From contig CALRHH010000004.1 of the NCBI GenBank assembly GCA_943359395.1, positions 1,699 to 65,698 on the forward strand: 64,000 nucleotides of DNA, read 5' to 3'. Source of the stretch: Candidatus Nomurabacteria bacterium. Its GTDB lineage: Bacteria > Patescibacteriota > Minisyncoccia > Phycocordibacterales > UBA2100. Shown here one piece after another: positions 4,579 through 64,000 of the stretch. The notes under the pieces were generated by a model, which was given only the letters and a program-made list of their open reading frames with translations, was not told the origin of the DNA and did no database searches. Each line of letters opens with the position of its first letter. The stretch's first letter is position 1. The translations under genes were made by a program, and so were the position numbers.

Positions 4579-6387
4579 CTTCGCAAGATTTCTCGGCCTG
4601 TCGGGGTTGTACCCATTCGCTTTCGAGAAGTAGTACGAGAAGAGATGGAGGGGTACAGCGTTCAAAATCGGGGAGAGCATTTCGCTCGTTTCTGGTACAA
4701 AAAATACATCACCTGCTACGCTTGCAACTTCTGTGTCTCCCTCTGTTGTAAGCGCAATCACTGGTCCTTTCCGCGCTTTTATCTGCTGAATGTTGGAGAG
4801 CATTTTCTCATACACGCTGTCCTTCGGTACAATCGCAAATGTGGGAAATTCCTCATCAATCATCGCGATGGGGCCGTGCTTCATCTCACCTGCTCCACAT
4901 CCCTCCGCATGAATGTAAGAGAGTTCTTTGAGCTTAAGTGCTCCTTCGTACGCGATAGGTAGATTATATTTCCTTCCAATGTAAAGAAAGTCTCGAACGG
5001 AGGCATACTTCTTCGCGAGCTCCTCGATCTCCCCTTTACGGTCGAGAATACTCTGGATCTTTTGTGGAAGCGACTTCAGCTCTTGGGCAATTTTCTCGCC
5101 CTCTGATTGAGACATCCCACGCTGCCGACCGAGAAAAACCGTGAGGAGGGCGAGTGCGACGAGTTGGGACACAAATGCTTTCGTAGAGGCAACACCGATT
5201 TCTGGGCCTGCGTGGTTGTAAACACCAGCGTCTGTTTCGCGCGCAATAGTGCTCCCCACCGTATTCACAATGCCGAGAGTAAGAGCACCATGTCGCTTTC
5301 CCTCTCTAAGAGCTTCAAGCGTGTCGGCTGTTTCGCCTGACTGAGAGATGCCGAGAACGATGGTGCGCTCGTTAATAACGGGTTTTCTGTATCGAAACTC
5401 TGAACCAAGCTCTACTTCAACGGGAATACCCGCGTACTCCTCAAGCATGTATTCTCCCACGAGCCCCGCGTAGTAGGCGGTGCCGCAGGCGACGATAATA
5501 ATCCTATCAATCTTCTCAAGCTGCTCCGCAACACTTTCGAGCCCCCCTAACTTTGCAAGACCTTTCTCAGGAATAAGTCTTCCACGTAAAGTATTCACAA
5601 CAACCTCGGGTGCCTCTAATATTTCTTTTATCATGAAATGCTCGTGCCCCCCTTTTTGCGCGGCCTCAGCGCTCCAGTCAATATCCGTAGTGGCCCGATG
5701 TACGTTTGACGCGTCGAGTTTGAAGATTTTATGACCATCAGAAGAAATCACCGCCACATCCCCGTCTTCGAGAAAGACGACCTTACGAGTGTGCGGCAAG
5801 ATAGGTGACGGGTCTGACGCAACGAAGTGCTCGCCGTCCCCAAGCCCGAGCACGATGGGTGAGCCCATGCGCGCAGCAATTATTTTGTCTGGTTCCATTT
5901 TGTACTGAAGCGCAATACCGTACGTACCTCGTACCTCGTTGAGTGCTGCAAGCGCGGCCTTTTCAAAACTCTTTTCCGTCTTCAAGTGCTCTTCTACGAG
6001 ATGCGCCAGTACTTCAGTATCGGTTGCAGACTTGAACTCATGTCCGGCCACCTCAAGCTTCTTTTTCAATTCCTTAAAGTTCTCGATGATGCCATTGTGC
6101 ACAACCCATATTTCCCCGCTCCCATCACTGTGCGGGTGTGCGTTTTGCTCAGTAGGTTCTCCATGTGTCGCCCAGCGTAAATGCGCGATACCGCTCTTCC
6201 CTTTAAAATCTTTTGGTATCTTTTTTCGTAACTCCGCGACAGCGCCTGGGGCTCGTACAACACCTGCTTCTGGCATGAAGATACCAGCCGAATCGTACCC
6301 TCGGTATTCGAGAGAAAGAAGCCCGTCGAGCAGGACTCCGCCAGCTTCTTTTCCCTTCTTACCCGTATAAGCAAAAATCCCACACAT
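4561..6387 (-). CDS. glmS: Glutamine--fructose-6-phosphate aminotransferase.
   Basis: MCGIFAY N-terminal nucleophile, two SIS domains, and a C-terminal DRPRNLAKSVTVE. Confidence 0.95.
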   Translation of the reverse strand: MCGIFAYTGKKGKEAGGVLLDGLLSLEYRGYDSAGIFMPEAGVVRAPGAVAELRKKIPKDFKGKSGIAHLRWATHGEPTEQNAHPHSDGSGEIWVVHNGIIENFKELKKKLEVAGHEFKSATDTEVLAHLVEEHLKTEKSFEKAALAALNEVRGTYGIALQYKMEPDKIIAARMGSPIVLGLGDGEHFVASDPSPILPHTRKVVFLEDGDVAVISSDGHKIFKLDASNVHRATTDIDWSAEAAQKGGHEHFMIKEILEAPEVVVNTLRGRLIPEKGLAKLGGLESVAEQLEKIDRIIIVACGTAYYAGLVGEYMLEEYAGIPVEVELGSEFRYRKPVINERTIVLGISQSGETADTLEALREGKRHGALTLGIVNTVGSTIARETDAGVYNHAGPEIGVASTKAFVSQLVALALLTVFLGRQRGMSQSEGEKIAQELKSLPQKIQSILDRKGEIEELAKKYASVRDFLYIGRKYNLPIAYEGALKLKELSYIHAEGCGAGEMKHGPIAMIDEEFPTFAIVPKDSVYEKMLSNIQQIKARKGPVIALTTEGDTEVASVAGDVFFVPETSEMLSPILNAVPLHLFSYYFSKANGYNPDRPRNLAKSVTVE

Positions 6388-31668: not shown

Positions 31669-32085
31669 TTATTCGCGGTGAGCCGCAAATGCGATGCTGA
31701 AAATCGCGATGTAGACGAGGAGTCCGTAGGCACACGTCGGGAGTCCGAGAACGTACGAGGAGAAGCCTTCAGCAAAGAGCCGCGGCAACTCTTGAAGCGT
31801 GAAGTATCCTGAAAAGAGGATGCCTGCGCCTGAAACGACCTTCAACGCATTGAGGGCCATCGAACGCGTCAACGCCCCCCAGAAGTACTGAGTAAGGAGT
31901 ATCGTCATGACGGCGTACATCGCGAACCCATAATAGCACGCGGGATAGCCGAGGAAGTACGGGCACGGCTCGTTGAGCGCGCAAACTTCCGAGAAAAGCT
32001 TAACTCCACTCAAGTAGCCTGCAAAGAGAAGCCCCGCGATGGAGAGTGCGAAGAGGAGGCGGAAGCGTCCCGTAATGAGATGCAT
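31669..32085 (-). CDS. Vitamin K epoxide reductase (VKOR)-family membrane protein.
   Basis: Four TM helices with cysteine pairs (CALNEPCPYFLGYPAC), typical of VKOR partners of DsbA. Confidence 0.65.
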   Translation of the reverse strand: MHLITGRFRLLFALSIAGLLFAGYLSGVKLFSEVCALNEPCPYFLGYPACYYGFAMYAVMTILLTQYFWGALTRSMALNALKVVSGAGILFSGYFTLQELPRLFAEGFSSYVLGLPTCAYGLLVYIAIFSIAFAAHRE

Positions 32086-46346: not shown

Positions 46347-47750
46347 TCAGACATCTTTGCCGATGGCAAAGAGCGTCTGTTCCCCGCCCCACGCGCCGAT
46401 TATCTGGAAACCTACCGGCAACTTTTTTCCATCACGCTCGACAGTGCCCCCTGGCACCGATATGGCCGGTACTCCCGCAAGATTCACTGGAACCGTGAAA
46501 ATATCTTCAAGGTAGAGCGCCACTGGATCGGAGTTCTTTTCTCCCAACTTAAACGCGGGCGAAGGAGTTGTCGGCATAACAATAGCATCGACCGTCTCGA
46601 ATGCTTTTGCAAAATCCGCTCGGATGAGCTCACGCACCGAACGCGCTTTTCGGTAGTACGCATCGGCGTAGCCTGAGGAGAGTACGAATGTACCTACGAG
46701 AATTCTGCGCCGTGTTTCCTTACCAAATCCTGCAGCCCGAGACTTTGAGTAAACCTCACCGATGTCGTCGGCGGAAACCGAGAGCCCGTATCGGATACCA
46801 TCGAGACGCGCGAGATTGGTCGAGACCTCCGCCGGATTAATGATGTAGTACACGGCAAGTGCGTACCGCAAAGAGGGTAACGCGACATCAACAATCGAGT
46901 ATCCAGCATTTTTCAATGTCTCCAACGTGTTTTCAAATTGTGTATGAATCTCAGGACTAAGGTCTTTCAAAAATTCTCTCGGCACTCCTATCACCTTCCG
47001 TTCAGCCACGGGCAAATCTTTTGTGTCGGGCAGAGATGTACTATCCATCGGGTCATGACCACGAATTGCATCAAAAAGGATTTTTGCATCACCGACACTC
47101 TTTCCGAGCGTCCCTATTTGGTCGAGAGAGGATGCCGCAGCGATGAGACCTGAGCGAGAAACAGCGCCGTACGTAGGCTTCATTCCTGCGATACCGCAGA
47201 AAGCTGCAGGCTGACGAATAGAACCACCTGTGTCGCTTCCAAGAGCGGCAAGCGCCATTCCCGCAGCCACGGCTGCGGCAGAGCCGCCCGAAGTACCACC
47301 AGGAACGCGTGAGGTATCGTGAGGGTTTTTCGTCGGTCCGTATGCCGAATTCTCCGTCGAGCTGCCAAGTGCGAACTCATCCATATTTGTCCGACCGAGA
47401 AATACCACACCCTGTGCTTTGAGTTTTGAAATAACAGTAGCGTCATACGAAGCCTTATAGTTTTCCAACATTTTCGACGCCGCGCTCGTAATGCGCCCCT
47501 CTATCAGGATGTTATCTTTGACCGCGATAGGAATTCCTGTAAGCGGCTGTGACTCCGCTCGCGCAATTATCGCATCCGCCGCCCTTGCCTCTTCCCGCGC
47601 AGAATCCGCCCATACTTCGAGGTATGCATGGATCTCTCCATCTTTTTTCTCTATCGCATCAAGATACGCATTCGTGAGGTCGAGCGCAGAATATTCCTTG
47701 GCATCCAATGCCCGCCGCGCCTCTGTGATGGTGAGTGTCGAGAGGTCCAT
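46347..47750 (-). CDS. gatA: Glu-tRNA(Gln)/Asp-tRNA(Asn) amidotransferase subunit A.
   Basis: Amidase signature GGSSGGSAAAVAAG and the Ser-cisSer-Lys triad context. Confidence 0.95.
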   Translation of the reverse strand: MDLSTLTITEARRALDAKEYSALDLTNAYLDAIEKKDGEIHAYLEVWADSAREEARAADAIIARAESQPLTGIPIAVKDNILIEGRITSAASKMLENYKASYDATVISKLKAQGVVFLGRTNMDEFALGSSTENSAYGPTKNPHDTSRVPGGTSGGSAAAVAAGMALAALGSDTGGSIRQPAAFCGIAGMKPTYGAVSRSGLIAAASSLDQIGTLGKSVGDAKILFDAIRGHDPMDSTSLPDTKDLPVAERKVIGVPREFLKDLSPEIHTQFENTLETLKNAGYSIVDVALPSLRYALAVYYIINPAEVSTNLARLDGIRYGLSVSADDIGEVYSKSRAAGFGKETRRRILVGTFVLSSGYADAYYRKARSVRELIRADFAKAFETVDAIVMPTTPSPAFKLGEKNSDPVALYLEDIFTVPVNLAGVPAISVPGGTVERDGKKLPVGFQIIGAWGGEQTLFAIGKDV

Positions 47751-47751
47751 G

Positions 47752-48036
47752 CTATTTTTTGCGCGAGATTACTTGCTTTACGGCAATTCTGTCCCCCTCT
47801 CGTGCGGGTGCAGCATCTAAAAGGGCTTTTGTATGCTTGCCGCTTTCGATAGGGTTTTCGTCCTTGCGCATGATGTTGCGATGCGCAGGTGACTTCTCTT
47901 CCTCCGGAGCGTTTGCACTCTGCATCGTCTCCACAAAATGCAAAATCGCTGGAATTTCTTTTTCCAACTGGACCATCTCATCCGTCTGAATCTCCAACCG
48001 CGCAAGCTTGGCAAGTGCGGCAATGTCTACAGTCAT
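47752..48036 (-). CDS. gatC: Amidotransferase subunit C, placed at the internal Met of ORF 47752..48198.
   Basis: MTVDIAALAKLARLEIQTDE...FVETMQ is a GatC-like 94-aa protein directly upstream of gatA. The upstream ORF extension has no support. Confidence 0.75.
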   Translation of the reverse strand: MTVDIAALAKLARLEIQTDEMVQLEKEIPAILHFVETMQSANAPEEEKSPAHRNIMRKDENPIESGKHTKALLDAAPAREGDRIAVKQVISRKK

Positions 48037-48080
48037 GGCGGAATAATACAAGAAAAAAAGGTATGGAGCGAGGTCACCAT

Positions 48081-48112
48081 AAAAAACTAAGCCGGTGGTT
48101 GCCCACCGGCTT
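48081..48112 (-). terminator. Intrinsic terminator of the GC-rich module.
   Basis: Perfect 10-bp hairpin AAGCCGGTGG-TTGC-CCACCGGCTT followed on the minus strand by AGTTTTTTAT. Confidence 0.7.
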
Positions 48113-48163
48113 GAATGTTGTATGAGCCAGACTGCCGACTCAAATTTTGAACTTGTTGGCGCG

Positions 48164-48481
48164 TCAGTCGCCGCCGGCAGTGGCCTCGGCGGCCGCACAA
48201 GCCTTCAGGTCGGCGATGACCGCATCGGCCTCGGGCGACCAGTGGTGCATCGGCACCTTCTGGGCGGCCGGATTCACGACGCAGGCATTGAACATCAGCA
48301 GATGCAGGAAGGTTCGGGTTTCATCGGTGCCCTGCTTCGCGGTCTCGACAGCTTCGTCGAATTTCGCCCCCGCGACACCGTCAGCCTTGATACCGGCCGG
48401 ATCAATGCCCATCGTGCGCATGCCCCTGATGATGCCGTTAATCGCCGTCCCGTTCGGTCCGTATTTCTTCGCCTTTGCCAT
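48164..48481 (-). CDS. Hypothetical protein (105 aa) encoded in a GC-rich (~63%) stretch.
   Basis: ORF with a GGGAGA Shine-Dalgarno upstream, its own promoter-like and terminator elements, and no recognisable motif. Confidence 0.5.
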   Translation of the reverse strand: MAKAKKYGPNGTAINGIIRGMRTMGIDPAGIKADGVAGAKFDEAVETAKQGTDETRTFLHLLMFNACVVNPAAQKVPMHHWSPEADAVIADLKACAAAEATAGGD

Positions 48482-48556
48482 GATTGATCTCCCGATCGTT
48501 TGGCACGCTTTAGCGCATCGCTTCCCCTACGAGACAACGACCGCAAAGCAGCTGCG

Positions 48557-48584
48557 TTTATAGCACTTTCTATAAAAAAGTCAA
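48557..48584 (-). promoter_or_regulatory. Sigma70-like promoter for the GC-rich ORF.
   Basis: On the minus strand TTGACT, then 16 nt, then TATAAA, about 75 nt upstream of the ATG at 48481. Confidence 0.5.
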
Positions 48585-48600
48585 GAATACCCACAGATGC

Positions 48601-50625
<2,025 letters not shown>

Positions 50626-54303: not shown

Positions 54304-54807
54304 CTACGGTCTTACGTCGTAGACAACACCATCGGCGGACCCGTTGAATCCTCCGTTGACTGCGGTGAAGTCAGCGTTGGTCGTCCATGTACCACCGGTA
54401 CATTGGCTGTTTAGGACCGCATCGTAGTCGATGTCCGAGCTCAAAGCACTGTGACCAACCGTCTCAAGCTTGGCGCCCAAGTGATAGCTTGTGCAATTCG
54501 TGCCGCTCCCGATCGCCTCGTAAGCGTAGCTGAGGAGACTCAAAGGGTCTCTCGGTAGTGCGGAGATGAAACCATCAGCCACCAAGTCTGTTGCATATTG
54601 CGCCGACGTTGGATATTTGCTGTTCGCATCATAATAGAGCTCAAGAGCAAGCTGAATTTGCTTGATGTCGGAAACGCGGCGTGCATCTCGGCCCTTTTTA
54701 CGTGCACTATTCAACGAGGCAAGAACTATTGAGGAAAGGATACCGATAATGGCGATGACCACGAGGAGCTCTATCAAAGTGAAACCCTTCTTATAAGATG
54801 TCTTCAT
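54304..54807 (-). CDS. Type IV major pilin (PilA-like).
   Basis: MKTSYKKG|FTLIELLVVIAIIGILSS, a canonical short leader and N-methyl-Phe site. Confidence 0.85.
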   Translation of the reverse strand: MKTSYKKGFTLIELLVVIAIIGILSSIVLASLNSARKKGRDARRVSDIKQIQLALELYYDANSKYPTSAQYATDLVADGFISALPRDPLSLLSYAYEAIGSGTNCTSYHLGAKLETVGHSALSSDIDYDAVLNSQCTGGTWTTNADFTAVNGGFNGSADGVVYDVRP

Positions 54808-57333: not shown

Positions 57334-57735
57334 CTATGCTCTATGTTTTACGAGCGCGTCACTCACCATGTTGACAACTTCGGACGGAATCATGCTCGCC
57401 TTGACGACGTAGCCCGTAGCACCGAGTTCTGCGGCTTTTGTTCTCTCTGACTCGTCGCTTTGGTTCGTAAGCGTTATCTTGAGAACTCCGTCCGCGAGAT
57501 GTTCGTCGGAGAGCGCCTTCAAAAATGCGAATCCGTCGAGTTCGGGCATCGTGAGGTCAAAGAGGATAACCTCCGGCTTGTACCCTCCCCGCAAAATACC
57601 GAGGGCTTGCTTCGCGGATAGACATGTCTCGACGGTGTAACCGTTTTGAGAAAATTTCATTCCGTACATATCCAAAAGAAATTTGTCGTCGTCGACGAGA
57701 AGTATGGGGCCTTTTTGCACGGGAGTATCGTTCAT
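57334..57735 (-). CDS. Stand-alone CheY-like response regulator receiver domain.
   Basis: LLVDDDKFLL ... ILFDLTMPELDGF ... K. Confidence 0.8.
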   Translation of the reverse strand: MNDTPVQKGPILLVDDDKFLLDMYGMKFSQNGYTVETCLSAKQALGILRGGYKPEVILFDLTMPELDGFAFLKALSDEHLADGVLKITLTNQSDESERTKAAELGATGYVVKASMIPSEVVNMVSDALVKHRA

Positions 57736-59468
57736 ATATGAGTGGCATCAGGTGCCGGTGCTTCGAGCGAAACGTCCGATTGTGTCTGTGGCGTGGGTAC
57801 GTCGTGTTCCCGGTCCCCCGCAAGAAGAAGTGTACTCAAGCTGTTCACTTCAGAAAAGGGAATGTGTTTATCGAACGCTTTAATCATAGCGTCCTCCTGC
57901 ATCGTGAGCATGCCCTCCGCACGCGCGACTGACCAGATTCTTGAGTCTACGGGATTGTCGAGAACGATTCGTTCGATGTCGGGAGACATTTCAAGCACTT
58001 CGAATACCGCCATGCGCCCGCGCAGGCCCGTCGGGCACGTGGGGGTACGCATCGGCTCGTACACCTTCTCGGGGATTTTAAAACGATATTTCTCCGGAAG
58101 AGATTCGAGCTGTTTTTCGATGCTTTTACGCTGCGATGCGCCGAGCGGCGTTTCTTGCGCGGCATCTTCGCAAAAGGTGCGGACCAAACGCTGGGCAATC
58201 GAGAGAATGAGGACGGGCGGGATGAGATACGGGTCGACGCCCATGTCGATGAGGCGCGGGATCGTCCCGACCGCGTCGTTGGTGTGTATCGTCGAGAGCA
58301 CGAGGTGGCCCGTGAGCGCCGCCTGGATAGCGAGCTTCGCCGTTTCGCCGTCGCGGATTTCACCCACCATGATGACGTCGGGGTCTTGCCGCAAGGTCGT
58401 GCGCAGGCCGTTGGCGAACGTGTATCCGATGTCGGGTCGGATTTGTGATTGGATAACGCCCTCGACGTAGTATTCGATTGGGTCTTCGAGAGAAAGCACG
58501 TTTTTGTGTTCGCGGTCGACCTCAGTGAGCATCGAGTAGAGCGTGGTCGACTTTCCCGAACCGGTTGGCCCCGATATGAGAACGAGCCCGTGCGGAGCAT
58601 TGACCGCTTTGCGCATCAACTCGAGGTTGCGTGGGGTGAGGCCGATTTGGTCGAGAGGGATGAATCCCTGCTCGCGGTCGAGAATACGAATAACTACTTT
58701 CTCGCCGTTATACGAAGGGAACGTAGAAACGCGGAAGTCGATCTGGCGCGTGTCGATTGACGCCGAAAAACGGCCGTCTTGCGGCTTGCGCATTTCGTCG
58801 AGTCTCATTGAGGCGAGGACTTTTACTCGCGCGATGAGCGCACGGTGTGTGGAAAGAGGCAATATCACGCTCGTATGGAGTTCCCCGTCGACGCGATACC
58901 GTACGCGTACGCCGGAGGGCTGCGGCTCGATGTGCACGTCAGAAGCCTTGCCGTCCACCGCATACCGCAATATCGTGGAAACTATCTTGATGGTCGGAGC
59001 ATCTTCGCGAATCTTTGCGAGCCCCTCTCCCGGTCCTCGACCAATTGACGGGTCTTCGAGGTCCAACGAGGAATTCTCACGTTCACTCATCTTTCCCTTC
59101 TCAGGAGCCCTCTCCACTGCGAGATCAGATACAGCCCGTTCGACCTCGCCGCCAAGTCCACGATACATGCCCAAGACCTTATCAAAATCTTCGCGATTTA
59201 TCTGAAATATCTTGAATGGCATCCCCGTTGTGCGTGCGATGAAGTTCAAGGCATCGACACCTTCGATATTGTCCGGCTCTATCATGCCCACCTCAAGCAC
59301 ACCTTCTGAGATGCCAAGAGGTACCAGACCGTAGTGACTGGCCGACTCTTCAGGAATATATTTAAGAATCTCGTATGCAACCTTTGCATCTCCAATCGTG
59401 CGTACGGGCACATCACCGACAGACTGGGTGGTGTTTGCAGATGCCGATGTGGTTACCTCTCCCGGCAT
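57732..59468 (-). CDS. pilB: Type IV pilus assembly ATPase PilB (GspE family).
   Basis: N-terminal GSPII_E_N domain, GPTGSGKSTT Walker A, and a tetracysteine motif. Confidence 0.9.
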   Translation of the reverse strand: MPGEVTTSASANTTQSVGDVPVRTIGDAKVAYEILKYIPEESASHYGLVPLGISEGVLEVGMIEPDNIEGVDALNFIARTTGMPFKIFQINREDFDKVLGMYRGLGGEVERAVSDLAVERAPEKGKMSERENSSLDLEDPSIGRGPGEGLAKIREDAPTIKIVSTILRYAVDGKASDVHIEPQPSGVRVRYRVDGELHTSVILPLSTHRALIARVKVLASMRLDEMRKPQDGRFSASIDTRQIDFRVSTFPSYNGEKVVIRILDREQGFIPLDQIGLTPRNLELMRKAVNAPHGLVLISGPTGSGKSTTLYSMLTEVDREHKNVLSLEDPIEYYVEGVIQSQIRPDIGYTFANGLRTTLRQDPDVIMVGEIRDGETAKLAIQAALTGHLVLSTIHTNDAVGTIPRLIDMGVDPYLIPPVLILSIAQRLVRTFCEDAAQETPLGASQRKSIEKQLESLPEKYRFKIPEKVYEPMRTPTCPTGLRGRMAVFEVLEMSPDIERIVLDNPVDSRIWSVARAEGMLTMQEDAMIKAFDKHIPFSEVNSLSTLLLAGDREHDVPTPQTQSDVSLEAPAPDATHI

Positions 59469-63436: not shown

Positions 63437-64000
63437 ATGACCATAACCTGTGCGACATACAATATACTGCACGGCTATCACCGAGAGATGGTGCTCAATA
63501 ACATACGCTTCCTTATAGACGAAGGAGCTGATGTGATATGCCTACAAGAAGCGGAGATACGGTTCAAAGGAGCGCTACGCAAATTCCTCGGCCAGAAGGA
63601 GTTGGTTGGCTGGGACATACATTCGGAACATGGGGGGTTCGGCGGCAATGTCGCGATACTATGGAGAAGCGACAAGCTGAAACTCGCGCGAACAAAGATT
63701 ATCGAACTCCCGAAATTGCGAATTTCCCCCACGCTGCAGCGCTTAAAAGTTCCTCAGTTAAAAAGATTCGATACCAACAGGTTAGCACTTGTCGGTTTTT
63801 TTGAGTTTGGAGGACAGACGGTTCAGGTAACGAGCGCTCACATCGCCTGGGAAGGCGGCAATCGCCATCGCATGCGGCAGATACGGCACTTGCGTGAAGC
63901 TCTCGAAGAAGAGTATGCCGACGTACGCATTCTCGCCGGTGACTTCAATACGCTCGCGCCGCGCGCGCTTCGACGCATCCACGAACGAAGGGTGGAACAA
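63437..64000 (+). CDS. Endonuclease/exonuclease/phosphatase (EEP) family protein, 5' part only; it continues beyond the window end.
   Basis: Manual translation is open to the window end: MTITCATYNILHGYHREMVLNNIRFLIDEGADVICLQEAE... shows the NIL..GADVICLQE EEP signature. It is absent from the ORF track because there is no stop within the window. Confidence 0.55.
   Translation, partial: MTITCATYNILHGYHREMVLNNIRFLIDEGADVICLQEAEIRFKGALRKFLGQKELVGWDIHSEHGGFGGNVAILWRSDKLKLARTKIIELPKLRISPTLQRLKVPQLKRFDTNRLALVGFFEFGGQTVQVTSAHIAWEGGNRHRMRQIRHLREALEEEYADVRILAGDFNTLAPRALRRIHERRVEQ

Follow-up and report, generated by a model that had tools for sequence, protein, structure and literature searches.

The closest described systems to the locus analyzed here are genomic-islet hotspots between core genes, whose islets are exchanged through recombination in conserved flanks. 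Recent acquisition of a genomic island is read from a composition that is atypical of the host, a patchy distribution among relatives, little divergence from a donor or between copies, and signatures of mobility. Our window, a stretch of 64,000 nucleotides of DNA from a Candidatus Kaiserbacteria (Paceibacterota, CPR) genome, contains a 105-aa gene that combines these features unevenly. Its composition is atypical relative to the host. Its distribution is patchy as well, with homologues in 0 of 80 related species representatives and carriers in two LigA subclades. Low divergence was not found: the nearest homologue is 64% identical, and pS among the homologues is 0.57-0.60. Signatures of mobility were not found either.

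A GC-rich gene between ligA and gatC

The first-pass annotation had placed the gene between gatC and ligA. We find the open reading frame (ORF) there, between ligA at 48601..50613 and gatC at 47752..48036. The features of the locus, in the order of transcription on the minus strand, are as follows.

48601..50613, minus strand: ligA, NAD-dependent DNA ligase, the upstream flank (Pfam domains on the identical gene, L001)
48579..48584, minus strand: -35-like hexamer TTGACT, read directly; identical in L004, at the same distance to the -10
48557..48562, minus strand: -10-like hexamer TATAAA, 16 nt past the -35, read directly; TATCAT in L004, with the same spacing
48482..48550, minus strand: predicted 5'UTR of about 69 nt, its start deduced from the -10; about 75% identical to L004
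48488..48493, minus strand: Shine-Dalgarno (SD) sequence GGGAGA, 6 nt ahead of the ATG, read directly
48164..48481, minus strand: 105-aa coding sequence for a predicted soluble, all-helical protein of an orphan family (from dN/dS, frame conservation, AF2, and GC3)
48123..48142, minus strand: small 3'UTR hairpin GAGTCGGCAGTCTGGCTC, predicted by MFE folding; a comparable hairpin occupies the equivalent place in L004
48081..48112, minus strand: intrinsic terminator with a perfect 10-bp stem (48089..48112), 7 G-C pairs, and a 4-nt loop
47752..48036, minus strand: gatC, the downstream flank (Pfam GatC on L001)
46347..47750, minus strand: gatA, after gatC (Pfam Amidase on L001)

The 318-nt ORF (48164..48481, minus strand) has a GC content of 63.2%, compared with 51.5% for the whole window, and the GC maximum of the entire window falls on this gene. 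Only 0.07% of all 318-nt windows (mean, 51.5%; sd, 3.4%) are as GC-rich. The earlier description of a module with ~63% GC therefore suits the ORF but not the whole 48081..48584 interval, which has 57.7% GC. By codon position, GC is 0.62, 0.49, and 0.78 at positions 1, 2, and 3, meaning that the excess lies mostly at third positions. When the same protein was recoded with the window's own codon usage, the expected third-position GC (GC3) was 0.569±0.046, against 0.79 observed (z=4.8), and 0 of 20000 simulations reached the observed value. The gene also ranks highest for GC3 among the 72 ORFs of the window, which contains no paralogue of it. The GC deviation claimed at first thus survives a comparison of both GC and codon usage. 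Expression-driven codon bias was considered as the cause of the high GC3 and dropped: a probable highly expressed gene, the pilin gene at 54304..54807, has a GC3 of 0.58, and the window is without ribosomal protein genes.

Elsewhere in the window, a single other stretch (58091..58471) reaches at least 62% GC. This stretch is part of a T2SSE/MshEN pilus ATPase gene (57732..59468) and seems no more than the usual variation within a gene. The next-highest GC3 values belong to an ORF at 63782..64000 (0.74), whose N-terminal part runs past the window end (64000), and to 31669..32085 (0.70), a VKOR-like membrane protein by a sub-threshold Pfam match.

An abrupt local GC peak in metagenome-assembled sequence is also what would be seen if the assembly were chimeric or contaminated by a high-GC organism. 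However, three additional contigs (two ENA assemblies, one Logan assembly) are 100% identical to the window sequence over 1.5-20 kb, and the cassette is thus not an assembly artefact or chimera. In independent samples, homologues are found among the same neighbouring genes, and the promoter and UTR beside the gene are conserved in L004. A chimeric or contaminant origin is scarcely credible in light of these findings.

Coding status and family of the 105-aa protein

The 105-aa ORF is a real protein-coding gene. Among its homologues, dN/dS is 0.26-0.46, and both the SD and the ATG are retained. Cross-species BLOSUM scores are highest for the sense frame (318/208/243, compared with 233/155/151 or less for the other frames), which is free of stops in all three homologues with DNA. 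Furthermore, AF2 models built on a 4-sequence alignment gave the same helical topology for the window protein (pLDDT, 88.6; pTM, 0.82) and a second family member (pLDDT, 90.5; pTM, 0.81). An argument can be made that the ORF is instead a chance frame in GC-rich DNA, or that the working product is an antisense ORF or a structured RNA. The opposite strand is open for 138 and 130 aa, as expected in high-GC3 sequence, and one antisense frame is stop-free in all three homologues. Nevertheless, the sense-frame BLOSUM scores are far the highest, dN/dS stays below 0.5, and the conserved start signals and two agreeing, confident models point the same way. Rfam gave no match across 47900..48700, 5'UTR included, and the fold z-scores are unremarkable. 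We consider it very unlikely that this is not a protein gene. A structured RNA as the product was dropped, given that neither the mRNA (fold z-score, -1.9) nor the antisense strand (-0.85) is unusually structured.

The public gene call for the homologue at L004:5836-6246 (136 aa) is probably 16 codons too long at its start. An ATG at 5884, behind a conserved AAGGAG, aligns with the window start and gives 120 aa; we place the L004 start there because the SD and ATG are conserved.

The family is small, with 4 members among about 15 billion proteins searched. When 5.8 billion protein clusters were searched by word index, the 105-aa protein matched only itself. An exhaustive phmmer search of 1.8 billion representatives recovered two relatives at 48% identity, along with a weak multi-repeat match to PG_binding_1. 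Profile searches added one further relative at 64% identity and none beyond, even at E up to 10. Family scans found no relatives in JGI metagenome contigs or IMG/VR. The first-pass annotation had recognized no motif in the protein, and our homology searches likewise found no known family: Pfam, NCBIfam, PHROG, and PADLOC scans gave no significant match (best PHROG E=0.21). Foldseek searches against the PDB (two models) and BFVD returned no neighbour (best E=0.67; TM-score, 0.39 or less), and literature searches found no relevant report.

In the AF2 models, the protein is a bundle of 4-5 helices, predicted to be cytoplasmic, with a Lys-rich N-terminal tail and without a signal peptide. All family members share the loop G-x-K-A-D-G-x-x-G-x-K-F-D and the residues R56, H60, M63, M78, H79, W81, and S82; the invariant polar residues also include K32, D34, K40, and D42. 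On the basis of the conserved loop and the His/Met cluster, we tentatively suggest that this may be a small cytoplasmic protein that binds a ligand, nucleic acid, or partner, or has a regulatory role, although we hold this assignment to be doubtful.

Two known families offer partial likenesses. The first is PG_binding_1 (PF01471). The loop of our family, G-I-K-A-D-G-x-x-G-x-K-F-D-x-x-V, resembles a segment of the PG_binding_1 repeats in protein P0004, G-I-K-A-D-G-I-F-G-P-K-T-D-R-A-V (phmmer E=2e-5, summed over 5 repeats), and the predicted helix-loop-helix has the same order of elements. An hhalign comparison with the family gave a probability of 67% over 22 of 60 columns, which is only half a repeat. 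In contrast, the 105-aa protein has no signal peptide, and Foldseek returned no PG-binding structure. The Pfam PG_binding_1 model had no match at E up to 10 in any of the four family members. The likeness falls short of family membership, and the Pfam gathering score is not reached in the four members. The second is the KorA/TrfB helix-turn-helix (HTH) repressor, which is similar in size and in its basic N-terminus. KorA was the best PDB profile-search match, over residues 7-62, at a nonsignificant E=0.095-0.36. In the HMMER alignment, the usual glycine is missing from the turn position of the 105-aa protein, and Foldseek with either AF2 model did not retrieve KorA structures at E up to 10. 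With an E of about 0.1 and no Foldseek support, this lead falls short of membership as well.

Expression signals

The SD, the TTGACT-N16-TATAAA pair, and the 10-bp terminator reported in the first-pass annotation are all in place on the minus strand. TTGACT-N16-TATAAA agrees with the sigma-70-type consensus at 10 of 12 positions and is a predicted promoter. A strict consensus promoter scan did not call it because the -10 hexamer in that scan must end in T (position 6). From the -35 to the ATG, 77 of 103 nt are identical between the window and L004, where the same -35, the 16-nt spacer, and the TA start of the -10 are kept. At the other end, the hairpin has the G+C-rich stem-loop and following U-run of an intrinsic terminator; its T-run occupies 48081..48088, and the letters after the stem on the minus strand are AGTTTTTTAT. 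Downstream of the homologue in both L004 and L005 there is a strong hairpin with a T6 run, and the stem sequences differ. RNAalifold placed a stem-loop in the 5'UTR (L004 counterpart, 5805-5883), with a few compensatory pairs and weak support from 3 sequences.

With these signals present and similarly arranged at L004, the locus would be consistent with the self-contained expression module described earlier. Transcription probably begins at the cassette's own promoter and terminates before gatC. A strong terminator at the end of the cassette would mean that gatCA is no longer simply co-transcribed with ligA, unlike in relatives with a 5-nt gap. A consensus scan found no canonical promoter in the 52 nt between the cassette terminator and gatC (48037..48088). 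A TATTAT lies 6 nt upstream of the gatC ATG and might yield a leaderless gatC transcript.

The ligA-gatC junction as a variable site

Related loci were drawn from 80 GTDB species representatives whose LigA is 60-86% identical to that of the window. Their labels are Candidatus Kaiserbacteria, Paceibacterota, or Parcubacteria, with some auto-labelled Saccharibacteria. The order ligA-gatC-gatA is kept in 72 of the 80. At most 24 nt separate ligA from gatC in 36 of the 72 species, and at most 101 nt in 46; this near-abutment is the ancestral-looking state. In 26 of the 72, the gap is filled with cargo of 275-3423 nt. This cargo comprises several unrelated families, including asparaginase-family genes, PaaX/Cas2-like genes, and DGR cassettes, as well as orphans or singletons. 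Because the junction is empty in most relatives and holds unrelated cargo in about a third, it behaves as a variable recombination or insertion hotspot, and ligA-gatC is a newly recognised variable junction.

Genes of the asparaginase family occur in at least ten junction loci. They match PF00710, alone or together with PF17763, and some comprise just the N-terminal half. Many close relatives have one immediately upstream of gatC. At this position the window genome has no such gene. Their position beside gatC may reflect a functional link to the GatCAB amidotransferase. Loci with such genes include the following.

L004:6436-7509, asparaginase-family gene
L006:8353-9384, asparaginase-family gene
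L007:6023-7330, asparaginase-family gene
L008:7175-8272, asparaginase-family gene
L010:6029-6538, asparaginase-family gene
L012:6027-6533, asparaginase-family gene
L014:6218-7294, asparaginase-family gene
L017:6097-7194, asparaginase-family gene
L039:4241-5476, asparaginase-family gene

Other cargo was also seen. DGR-like cassettes at L069:6169-8684 and L078:6027-8580 each have an RVT_1 reverse transcriptase and a bAvd-like four-helix protein; both also contain an ORF of 231-233 aa with a GC3 of 0.75, which may be the variable target. A second small-protein family of 96-119 aa, with no Pfam match, sits immediately upstream of gatC in several loci (L005:1819-2127, L033:7291-7635, L036:7333-7623, and L039:5560-5919) and occurs together with the 105-aa family in L005 only.

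Relative to flanking ligA and gatA, the GC3 of the cargo deviates in both directions, from -0.36 to +0.22. Pieces of the flanking genes are found within some of it. The C-terminal tail of ligA is duplicated at 71-73% aa identity in L033:6693-6815 and L039:4042-4146, and L024:4312-4359 matches the beginning of gatC over a short stretch of 16 aa. These flank fragments suggest that cargo may be inserted by recombination anchored in the conserved flanks, and such flank-anchored recombination probably serves the junction.

Distribution and age of the cassette

Whether the gene is present at this junction in related genomes had been raised as a check on the first-pass annotation. The gene is not universal, as 0/80 representatives carry a homologue, and tblastn and nhmmer searches of the 80 loci turned up no pseudogene traces of the cassette. 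With no carriers among the 80 and ligA abutting gatC in many of them, the cassette is an accessory insert in a variable junction. In L004, the gene order is pilus genes, ligA, homologue, and asparaginase-like gene; in L005, it is ligA, homologue, 102-aa gene, gatC, and gatA. The homologue thus directly follows ligA wherever neighbours are identifiable (L004 and L005). The contig of the third relative, P0002, has a compatible gene order, which is a predicted order only, the contig being unannotated.

Synonymous sites are saturated among the window, L004, and L005, with a pS of 0.69-0.73 for ligA and 0.57-0.60 for the 105-aa gene. That the promoter and UTR have been kept at the same site despite this saturation indicates that the whole module has long been under constraint. 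Over such divergence, amelioration is predicted to bring acquired DNA to the composition of its host. Yet the GC3 of the homologue exceeds that of its ligA and gatA flanks in the window (0.78 versus 0.56, or +0.22), L004 (0.72 versus 0.55, or +0.17), and L005 (0.78 versus 0.67, or +0.11). The asparaginase-like gene next to the homologue in L004 has a GC3 below its flanks. An excess that recurs in all three homologues, at saturated sites, points to a maintained family trait and not to the trace of an import that has yet to ameliorate. The earlier reading of composition as a sign of recency is not supported, given this recurrence.

A recent horizontal acquisition from a higher-GC donor, with GC3 not yet drifted to the host value, would account for several of our observations. 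It would explain a GC3 of 0.79 where 0.57 is expected, the absence of the gene from 80 of 80 related representatives and its patchy carriers on the LigA tree, and its location in a demonstrated exchange hotspot with compositionally heterogeneous cargo. Other observations run against it. Synonymous divergence is saturated, the window and L004 share a promoter and UTR at the same site, and the GC3 excess appears in all three hosts. Moreover, no donor lineage for the cassette was found in 1.8 billion representative proteins; only three relatives are known, of which two follow ligA directly, in contigs of Kaiserbacteria type, and the third (P0002) has the compatible order. The borders of the cassette also speak against a recent event: it is a single ORF with no integrase or transposase, direct or inverted repeats around it are limited to chance-level matches of 10-16 nt, the nearest tRNA is 2.6 kb away and so no tRNA target adjoins it, and no duplicate of a ligA or gatC fragment borders it. 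We therefore judge recent import to be improbable. What stands of the original proposal is an accessory, compositionally deviant gene that is not universal, so that a horizontally acquired accessory module is partly right; what lacks support is the word "recent," in view of the saturated sites, the shared site, and the lack of a donor. A transposon- or MITE-like element was also considered and dropped, since flanking repeats are absent.

A second alternative is repeated transfer among Kaiserbacteria, in which an old family would have moved by homologous recombination in the ligA and gatC flanks, out of a pool of higher-GC lineages. In a neighbor-joining tree of LigA, the window groups with L004, L005 belongs to a different subclade, and non-carriers lie between the two subclades. 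The protein and LigA identities are discordant: L005 is closer to the window in the 105-aa protein (60-64%, versus 48% for L004), and L004 is closer in LigA (83%, versus 76.5% for L005). Other junction cargo contains duplicated fragments of the ligA tail or gatC head, related genomes range from 41 to 60% GC, and the family GC3 is nearly constant (0.72-0.78) whatever the host. However, no higher-GC carrier has been sampled, and representatives with 58-60% GC are without the gene near ligA. The discordance between trees is weak, coming from three DNA sequences only, and no ligA or gatC duplicate borders the 105-aa cassette itself. Repeated transfer from such a pool is possible, if on balance unlikely. 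Some horizontal exchange within Kaiserbacteria is nonetheless plausible, given the patchy carriers and discordant identities. The three DNA sequences would allow either of two histories: an old cassette inherited vertically and lost many times, or one passed among Kaiserbacteria via the hotspot.

Discussion

Our results point to a monocistronic accessory cassette that consists of a sigma-70-like promoter, a conserved 5'UTR with an SD, a 318-nt coding sequence, a 3' hairpin, and a terminator. It sits at the variable ligA-gatC junction of a Kaiserbacteria genome, as one rare cargo type there, with four sequences in total. The cassette would have been at this site at least since the lineages of the window and L004 split, time enough to saturate synonymous sites. 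Likewise, its high GC3 (0.72-0.78, whatever the GC3 of the host) would be maintained and not left from recent transfer. We regard this reading, in which anatomy, accessory status, and long residence are taken jointly, as probable.

A bolder interpretation, which we consider a long shot, is that the 105-aa protein founds a helical fold family not seen before and confined to a few Kaiserbacteria, with GC3 held ~0.1-0.2 above that of the host by a gene-specific force. If true, this would mean that a force such as GC-biased conversion at a hotspot of recombination, or selection on the DNA or RNA itself, acts in reduced CPR genomes. On its own, the 105-aa gene is a modest finding, one more lineage-restricted orphan gene. 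More generally, the cassette is a clean counterexample to the practice of taking a GC or GC3 anomaly for evidence of recent transfer, in that the anomaly is conserved across homologues at saturated divergence. The junction itself offers a concrete place for studying gene flux in the reduced CPR genomes of Kaiserbacteria and other Paceibacterota.

Compared with genomic-islet hotspots between core genes, the ligA-gatC junction is similar in that most relatives have nothing there and others have unrelated cargo. The likeness extends to cargo whose GC3 deviates both ways and to the fragments of flanking genes that are duplicated in some of it. The 105-aa cassette differs in that it is only 564 nt long and comes without an integrase, tRNA target, or repeats. 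It differs, too, in its apparent age, being seemingly a resident of long standing and not a recent gain.
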